Source: Escherichia coli (GTDB lineage Bacteria; Pseudomonadota; Gammaproteobacteria; Enterobacterales; Enterobacteriaceae). Taken from it: DNA of 64,000 nucleotides. The translations under genes were made by a program, and so were the position numbers. The stretch lies in NCBI RefSeq assembly GCF_003334385.1, contig NZ_QOWN01000018.1; one strand, written 5' to 3'. The first letter of the stretch is position 1. Every line of letters starts with the position of its first letter. Shown one piece after another: positions 29,883 to 29,956 of the stretch. The notes under the pieces were generated by a model that was not told the origin of the DNA, ran no database searches, and worked only from the letters and a program-made list of their open reading frames with translations.

Positions 29883-29956
29883 GGCCTGATAAGGCGTTTA
29901 CGCCGCATCAGGCCGCCAGCACCGATTGCCGGATGCGACGTAACCACATCCGGCGC
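29883..29956. repeat. Two REP palindromic units (BIME-like) between convergent rluC and yceF
   Basis: GGCCTGATAAGGCGTTTACGCCGCATCAGGCC (29883-29914) and GCCGGATGCGACGTAACCACATCCGGCGC (29928-29956). Confidence 0.8.

Follow-up and report, generated by a model that had tools for sequence, protein, structure and literature searches.

The two palindromes that lie between the convergent genes rluC and yceF of Escherichia coli, hereafter called REP1 and REP2 and together catalogued as REP101, very likely constitute one BIME-2-like unit with a hairpin shared by the 3' ends of both transcripts, a partial effect on those ends, and loops that are targeted by IS1397. We analyzed the pair within a stretch of 64,000 nucleotides (hereafter the window), which is identical in sequence to MG1655 at the rluC-yceF locus; window positions are NC_000913.3 positions minus 1116048. 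In the list of open reading frames, rluC, encoding a 23S rRNA pseudouridine synthase (MG1655 b1086, 1144940-1145899), occupies 28892-29851 on the plus strand and ends with TAA at 29849-29851, and yceF, encoding an m7GTP pyrophosphatase of the Maf family (b1087, 1146011-1146595), occupies 29963-30547 on the minus strand and ends with TAG at 29965-29963. The preliminary description of this DNA was correct in placing two palindromes in the 111-bp gap between these genes (29852-29962), which is 3' untranslated sequence from both sides. The gap folds at -46.5 kcal/mol on the plus strand and -52.4 kcal/mol on the minus strand (z scores of -4.55 and -4.57, none of 200 shuffles being equal), values that would be expected of REP palindromes even if these were purely selfish.

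The yceF reading frame can be extended to an upstream ATG (29963-30586, minus strand), giving 207 aa, the annotated protein having 194 aa. Other elements recognized in the window are the small RNA SraB in the yceF-yceD intergenic region (30541-30709, plus strand; Rfam RF00077, 210.6 bits, full length), the RNase E 5' UTR autoregulatory element upstream of rne (28344-28680, minus strand; RF00040, 260 bits) and the PyrC leader (6560-6609, minus strand).

The consensus that we used for REPs is an imperfect palindrome of ~35 nt, GCC[G/T]GATGCGRCG...CGYCTTATC[C/A]GGCCTAC, and both palindromes were scored on the defining features of Ton-Hoang et al. and on another REP of the window, a single, fully canonical element with a GTAG foot at 18602-18635 (minus strand). 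The REP head motif GCCKGATGCGRCG is found six times in the window, where 0.66 occurrences would be expected; two of the six lie, inverted, in the rluC-yceF gap. Their location in the gap, the six head motifs and their listing as REP101 in a published table, where they are labelled 'Convergent' at 1146003-1145929 (window 29955-29881; Harris et al. 2026, supplement), indicate that the palindromes are extragenic and belong to a highly repeated family. The locus is absent from the lists in the RepRanger supplements. Elsewhere in the window a degenerate pair of REP heads is found around 49645-49765, with a GGCCTAC foot at 49759, and a further match to the head at 56100-56112 has no palindrome and looks like a chance match.

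The inverted pair spans 29880-29955. REP1 (29880-29914, minus strand) is a near-canonical y-type REP, reading GCCTGATGCGGCGTAAACGCCTTATCAGGCCAAC on the minus strand, with arms of 15 nt at 29883-29897 and 29900-29914 that are 87% complementary. Its stem contains the two-base mismatch bubble of REPs (AA vs. GC), and its foot is degenerate, with CAAC in place of CTAC (on the plus strand GTTG at 29880-29883, one mismatch to GTAG). It shares 31 of 34 positions with the canonical REP of the window, and of its three differences two form a compensating pair of the y type. REP2 (29927-29955, plus strand; GCCGGATG...CATCCGGC) is a short, atypical z-like palindrome with 8-nt arms at 29928-29935 and 29947-29954 that are 100% complementary; it has neither a stem mismatch nor a CTAC foot, and matches the canonical REP only over its first ~17 nt, thus following the consensus in part. 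The initial view of two canonical REPs consequently holds, with slight qualification, for REP1 but not for REP2.

REP101 is a single BIME-2-like unit consisting of y-type REP1 and short z-like REP2, head to head. The two heads, GCC[T/G]GATG, point at each other over a linker of 12-14 nt (29915-29926), and this arrangement, with T-stem (y) and G-stem (z) palindromes in inverse orientation on either side of a short linker of S-type length, is that of BIME-2 (y plus z2), the assignment of REP2 to z1 or z2 being uncertain because it is truncated. The length of the linker excludes BIME-1, in which z1 and y are separated by a long L linker with an IHF site. BIME-2 elements are described as multiple tandem copies with s/l/r flanking motifs (Ton-Hoang et al.), whereas REP101 consists of one unit only, in K-12 as in all alleles examined, and it departs further from other E. 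coli REPs and BIME-2 elements in its shortened, perfectly paired and footless REP2 and in the GTTG foot of REP1.

The pair also resembles REP325/naRNA4, with which it shares the inverted y/z arrangement, the short 12-14-nt linker and an extragenic position between convergent genes. The Rfam model of naRNA4, an RNA of two hairpins derived from REP325 (RF02564, 77 nt), aligns over its whole length, linker with linker, to 29883-29955 on both strands (54.3 and 53.4 bits, E about 5e-9), a match that might suggest that REP101 is the source of a nucleoid-associated RNA acting with HU in chromosome condensation. However, the y and z stems are swapped with respect to the model, the 3' arm of REP2 is a perfect mirror of its 5' arm with an interior 5 nt shorter than that of naRNA4, and both scores are lower than the gathering threshold of 59.5, REP101 being absent from the scan at that level. 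REP101 is consequently not a member of this family; the similarity reflects common REP architecture, not orthology, and a naRNA4-like role is very improbable.

Published transcript data place the 3' ends of both genes on REP1. Entry 86 of the SEnd-seq table of Ju et al. (2019), given in the supplement of Harris et al. (2026; bioRxiv 10.64898/2026.03.23.713779), is an overlap of bidirectional terminators at 1145926-1145969 that is assigned to yceF:rluC and REP101, with convergent transcription in the gap region; it is recorded in stationary phase only, with -28.4 kcal/mol and 1 and 2 flanking U. The interval corresponds to 29878-29921 of the window, that is, to an extended REP1 hairpin, for which our folding gives -26.2 kcal/mol (plus strand) and -24.8 kcal/mol (minus strand). 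By this mapping the rluC mRNA ends near 29921 and excludes REP2, and the yceF mRNA passes through REP2 and the linker before ending near 29878, just beyond REP1. The preliminary description had considered the pair a probable 3' stabilizer or terminator for both converging transcripts, and it is borne out insofar as the mapped ends of both fall on the pair and not elsewhere; but the hairpin involved is REP1, not REP2, it is devoid of a U-tract, and the overlap was detected in stationary phase only. REP101 is therefore like other bidirectional terminators seen by SEnd-seq in that convergent 3' ends overlap over one hairpin, and unlike them in its detection in stationary phase only, in having almost no flanking A/U tracts, in lying inside Rho-dependent regions on both strands and in its absence from the curated Term-seq list.

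A scan with the consensus of intrinsic terminators found none in the gap, and no U-tract follows the hairpin. The GC-rich hairpins and the run of six A after REP2 on the plus strand, which is U6 before REP2 on the minus strand, could be taken for a classical Rho-independent bidirectional terminator. Yet the run forms an A-tract for the rluC transcript and lies on the wrong, 5' side of REP2 for that of yceF, and read-through is sensitive to bicyclomycin on both strands; there is hardly any probability left for such a terminator.

Bicyclomycin data define regions of Rho-dependent termination on both strands at the locus (Adams et al. 2021, PMC7815308). On the plus strand the region is at 1145841 (Rho score 4.36, p 4e-10) and on the minus strand at 1145524 (score 5.4, p 1e-7), about 400 nt beyond the REPs in the direction of yceF transcription, indicating read-through that far; the curated Term-seq list of the same study has no 3' end in 1145900-1146099 under three growth conditions. 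An in vitro Rho-binding (rut) peak at 1146050-1146083 (30002-30035, plus strand; Harris et al. 2026, supplement) lies in the rluC sense, antisense to yceF, 47 nt past REP101, and overlaps a bicyclomycin-sensitive transcript of 1145912-1146487 (29864-30439) reported in the same supplement. The lack of a U-tract, the Rho-dependent termination on both strands and the absence of a Term-seq 3' end together lead us to conclude that the REP101 pair is a weak, context-dependent 3'-end element and not a classical terminator. Such a role has published parallels: REP325 is a partly Rho-dependent terminator as well as a stabilizer, REPs occur in 207 of 704 convergent gaps, and 78 REPs lie within the 306 mapped bidirectional terminators.

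The same observations can be read in another way, namely that Rho terminates transcription elsewhere and the REP1 hairpin merely stops 3' exonucleases afterwards, as a passive block to decay. The Rho-dependent regions on both strands, the downstream rut peak and the bicyclomycin-sensitive transcript that crosses the REPs agree with this possibility, as do the missing U-tract and the published finding that two-hairpin REP fragments alone have no detectable Rho dependence. Conversely, genes with terminal REPs do not have longer half-lives in published genome-wide data; an exonuclease degrading the plus-strand transcript would reach REP2 first, yet the rluC 3' end is at REP1; and the collision model of Wang et al. 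is based on in vitro data in which the hairpin of a bidirectional terminator pauses the polymerase and sets the place of collision. Weighing these points, we regard a purely passive block as possible but somewhat doubtful.

We favor instead a composite mechanism. Both rluC and yceF are transcribed into REP101, and the REP1 hairpin, predicted to form on either strand at about -25 kcal/mol, marks the shared 44-nt overlap of the mRNA ends, as published mapping shows for stationary phase. Because it has no U-tract, this hairpin would presumably be insufficient to terminate transcription alone. It probably pauses the polymerase and leaves Rho, or a collision with the polymerase coming from the other side, to complete termination; it is probably also a barrier at whose base 3'-to-5' exonucleases stop when shortening longer, Rho-terminated transcripts. 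This effect is partial and dependent on conditions, and the shares that we assign here to pausing, Rho, collision and exonuclease trimming in the mapped ends are inferred ones. A point against this mechanism is that the REP1 hairpin is dispensable, since it is missing in the 299 O157-type and 25 scar-allele genomes described below. The empty Term-seq interval, the detection of the overlap in stationary phase only, the minus-strand read-through and the ordinary half-lives of genes with terminal REPs also count against it.

REP2 may have a separate role in the 3' UTR of yceF, given that its stem base is 7 nt downstream of the stop codon. Liang, Rudd and Deutscher (2015) are reported to have found that REPs located less than 16 nt past a stop codon reduce translation of the upstream gene through ribosome stalling. 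In its distance from the stop codon, REP2 falls within this range and may thus lower yceF translation by the same route, but its hairpin is shorter, weaker and non-canonical in comparison with those translation-modulating REPs. The hairpin also varies among strains: position 29946 is A in the haplotype identical to K-12 and G in all the 12 other alleles examined, and the A weakens the plus-strand REP2 hairpin (-15.5 vs. -20.9 kcal/mol), G-U pairing keeping that of the minus strand. The haplotype with A occupies the top quarter of the evenly spaced rows of the sample and is also present in Z142-1.

The preliminary description had pointed to the gap as a place where IS insertions and strain variation might be found, and this expectation was confirmed in a survey of 5,426 complete E. 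coli genomes, all of which have the locus (uninterrupted in 5,419). The gap is not invariant: among 13 alleles 32 of its 111 columns vary, compared with 8 of 104 in the adjoining part of rluC and 11 of 288 in that of yceF. One change is the O157-type deletion of 11 bp (GCGGTTGGCCT, 29877-29887), present in 299 of the 5,426 genomes; without these 11 bp REP1 loses its outer arm and with it the hairpin, the region then folding at only -10.7 and -12.8 kcal/mol. CEC01302, the gap of which looked aberrant, carries this same allele. A further 25 genomes have a scar allele (XDL type), described below, that likewise abolishes the REP1 hairpin; together the two alleles leave about 6% of the genomes without the hairpin on which the 3' ends have been mapped.

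Full-length IS1397 copies lie in the REP loops of 6 of the 5,426 genomes and represent four independent events. One of these (the JNE12-type allele) is shared by JNE12-007, HCP5S3_I2 and LCP30S3_I5, in which the element is in the REP2 loop at 29942-29945 with duplication of AAAC. The remaining three are in the REP1 loop: in strain 042 at 29896-29899 (GTTT duplicated), in O78 strain 3 at 29898-29901, 2 bp further along (TTAC), and in NY1601 at 29896-98 (GTT), there in the opposite orientation. That IS1397 prefers REP loops has been recognized since the 1990s. It is described as a REP-specific element of the IS3 family that inserts in the loops of REPs (PUs) with duplications of 3-4 bp, and all six full-length copies at REP101 agree with this description in their position in the central loops and in the size of their duplications; both orientations relative to the REP occur. 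The loops of both REPs are preferred targets of IS1397, which together with small deletions makes the gap far more variable than the flanking genes.

In the scar allele GGTTCAGTTCA stands in place of the outer arm of REP1; it is a terminal stretch of IS1397, 11 nt long, or 15 nt if the TTGG common to the flank is counted, so that this lineage, unlike the full-length targets, keeps only 11-15 nt of an IS end. Because this end abuts GTTTACGCC at 29896 exactly as it does in NY1601, the scar is, as judged from its junction, an IS1397 insertion followed by a microhomology deletion that also took a REP arm. It probably derives from a fifth independent insertion, since its flanking haplotype resembles that of LF82 and not that of NY1601.

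At other loci, the sequences bordering IS1397 copies show homology to the REP101 pair over about 65 bp. The one copy inspected, in the fetB-rof gap of IAI39, is inside a REP palindrome beside a second, inverted REP, in keeping with the REP specificity published for IS1397; its two flanks are REP arms of different types, one y and one z, and show no matching duplication of the target, which suggests recombination between IS copies residing in different REPs.

One genome, Z142-1, carries a different insertion, a 1,310-bp element of the IS3 family in the linker, with a 3-bp duplication of GCC at 29915-29917 and ends TGAACCGCCCCGGGAATCC... and ...GGAAACCCGGGGCGGTTCA. A text search for its terminus gave no match; from its length and ends we take it to resemble IS629/IS1203. 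FAHZZU6724 is not a variant of the REP gap, which is intact in this genome; here the 5' part of yceF is truncated (window ~30225) and joined directly to a partial, frameshifted hpaB, through a deletion or rearrangement that has no relation to REP101. In the draft genome SCPM-O-B-8794, labelled E. coli, a central segment of 61 bp, reaching from the REP1 loop through REP2, has the opposite orientation to that in K-12, with 58 of 61 positions identical once it is reverse-complemented, and the left flank has diverged. Its inversion junction has no match in the 5,426 complete genomes, and the inversion is either a rare REP-mediated event or an assembly artefact of inverted repeats.

To compare the locus between species we used YceF as anchor, with one genome per species, and verified 61 enterobacterial loci with convergent rluC and yceF; about 19 of 80 loci were discarded for spurious gaps of ~1.3 kb (due to partial or low-identity rluC matches) or for having no usable rluC or yceF match. 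Over the 61 species the gap measures 0-469 bp (median 80), and its sequences are unrelated between species; 46 of the 55 scorable gaps have z < -2, with a median of -4.6 on mononucleotide shuffles. A classical bidirectional terminator of the A-tract/hairpin/T-tract type is present in the gap of eight species including Enterobacter cloacae, and in four species there is practically no gap. Salmonella and Citrobacter carry REPs of their own, one or two in number. In Raoultella ornithinolytica and R. planticola the gap reaches 465-469 bp, far above that of their relatives, with room for an extra small gene or element. The gap of E. albertii contains a single ortholog of REP1, perfectly paired, with an intact GTAG foot and a homologous left flank, and no REP2. 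REP1 is thus older than E. coli, and REP2 is either an addition in E. coli or a loss in E. albertii.

These results supply arguments for and against the view that REP101 is a selfish or neutral relic, in which REPs came to rest in a convergent gap that tolerates them, without any function under selection at the locus. The content of the gap is specific to lineages (one REP in E. albertii, one or two of their own in Salmonella and Citrobacter, none in others), and in E. coli the polymorphism of the gap exceeds that of its flanks by a factor of about 3-8; moreover, REP1 has a degenerate foot and REP2 lacks both foot and stem mismatch, the two features required for TnpA-REP binding (Ton-Hoang et al.), and the loss of the REP1 hairpin in some 6% of genomes points the same way. 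Nevertheless, the measured 3' ends of both transcripts fall on the REP1 hairpin, which has been kept in place since before the split of E. coli and E. albertii, and where REPs are absent, most species show a different strong hairpin, or a true bidirectional terminator, in the same position. We therefore hold a functionless relic to be rather unlikely. The comparison favors the view that a structured 3' element has been needed repeatedly between rluC and yceF, an argument that is limited by the four gapless species and by the good folding to be expected of selfish palindromes as well.

REP101 itself is an already known element, catalogued under that name and present with its convergent 3'-end role in published datasets, and there is nothing new in kind in our findings. 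Their added value is modest, a population picture of one locus with at least four independent IS1397 insertions in 111 bp, and their importance is small beyond housekeeping. They bear, however, on the long-debated question of what REPs do between convergent genes, for which the IS scar and the lineage-fixed deletion of the mapped terminator hairpin could be natural controls. With its intact form, the 299 O157-type and 25 scar alleles, the weakened REP2 of the K-12 haplotype and the forms split by IS elements, REP101 may tentatively be proposed as a natural allelic series for the function of REPs in convergent gaps, although we think it doubtful that it will serve as such and that the scar reveals a general route of REP decay. 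If true, that route would consist of REP-specific IS insertion followed by a microhomology deletion that removes a REP arm.
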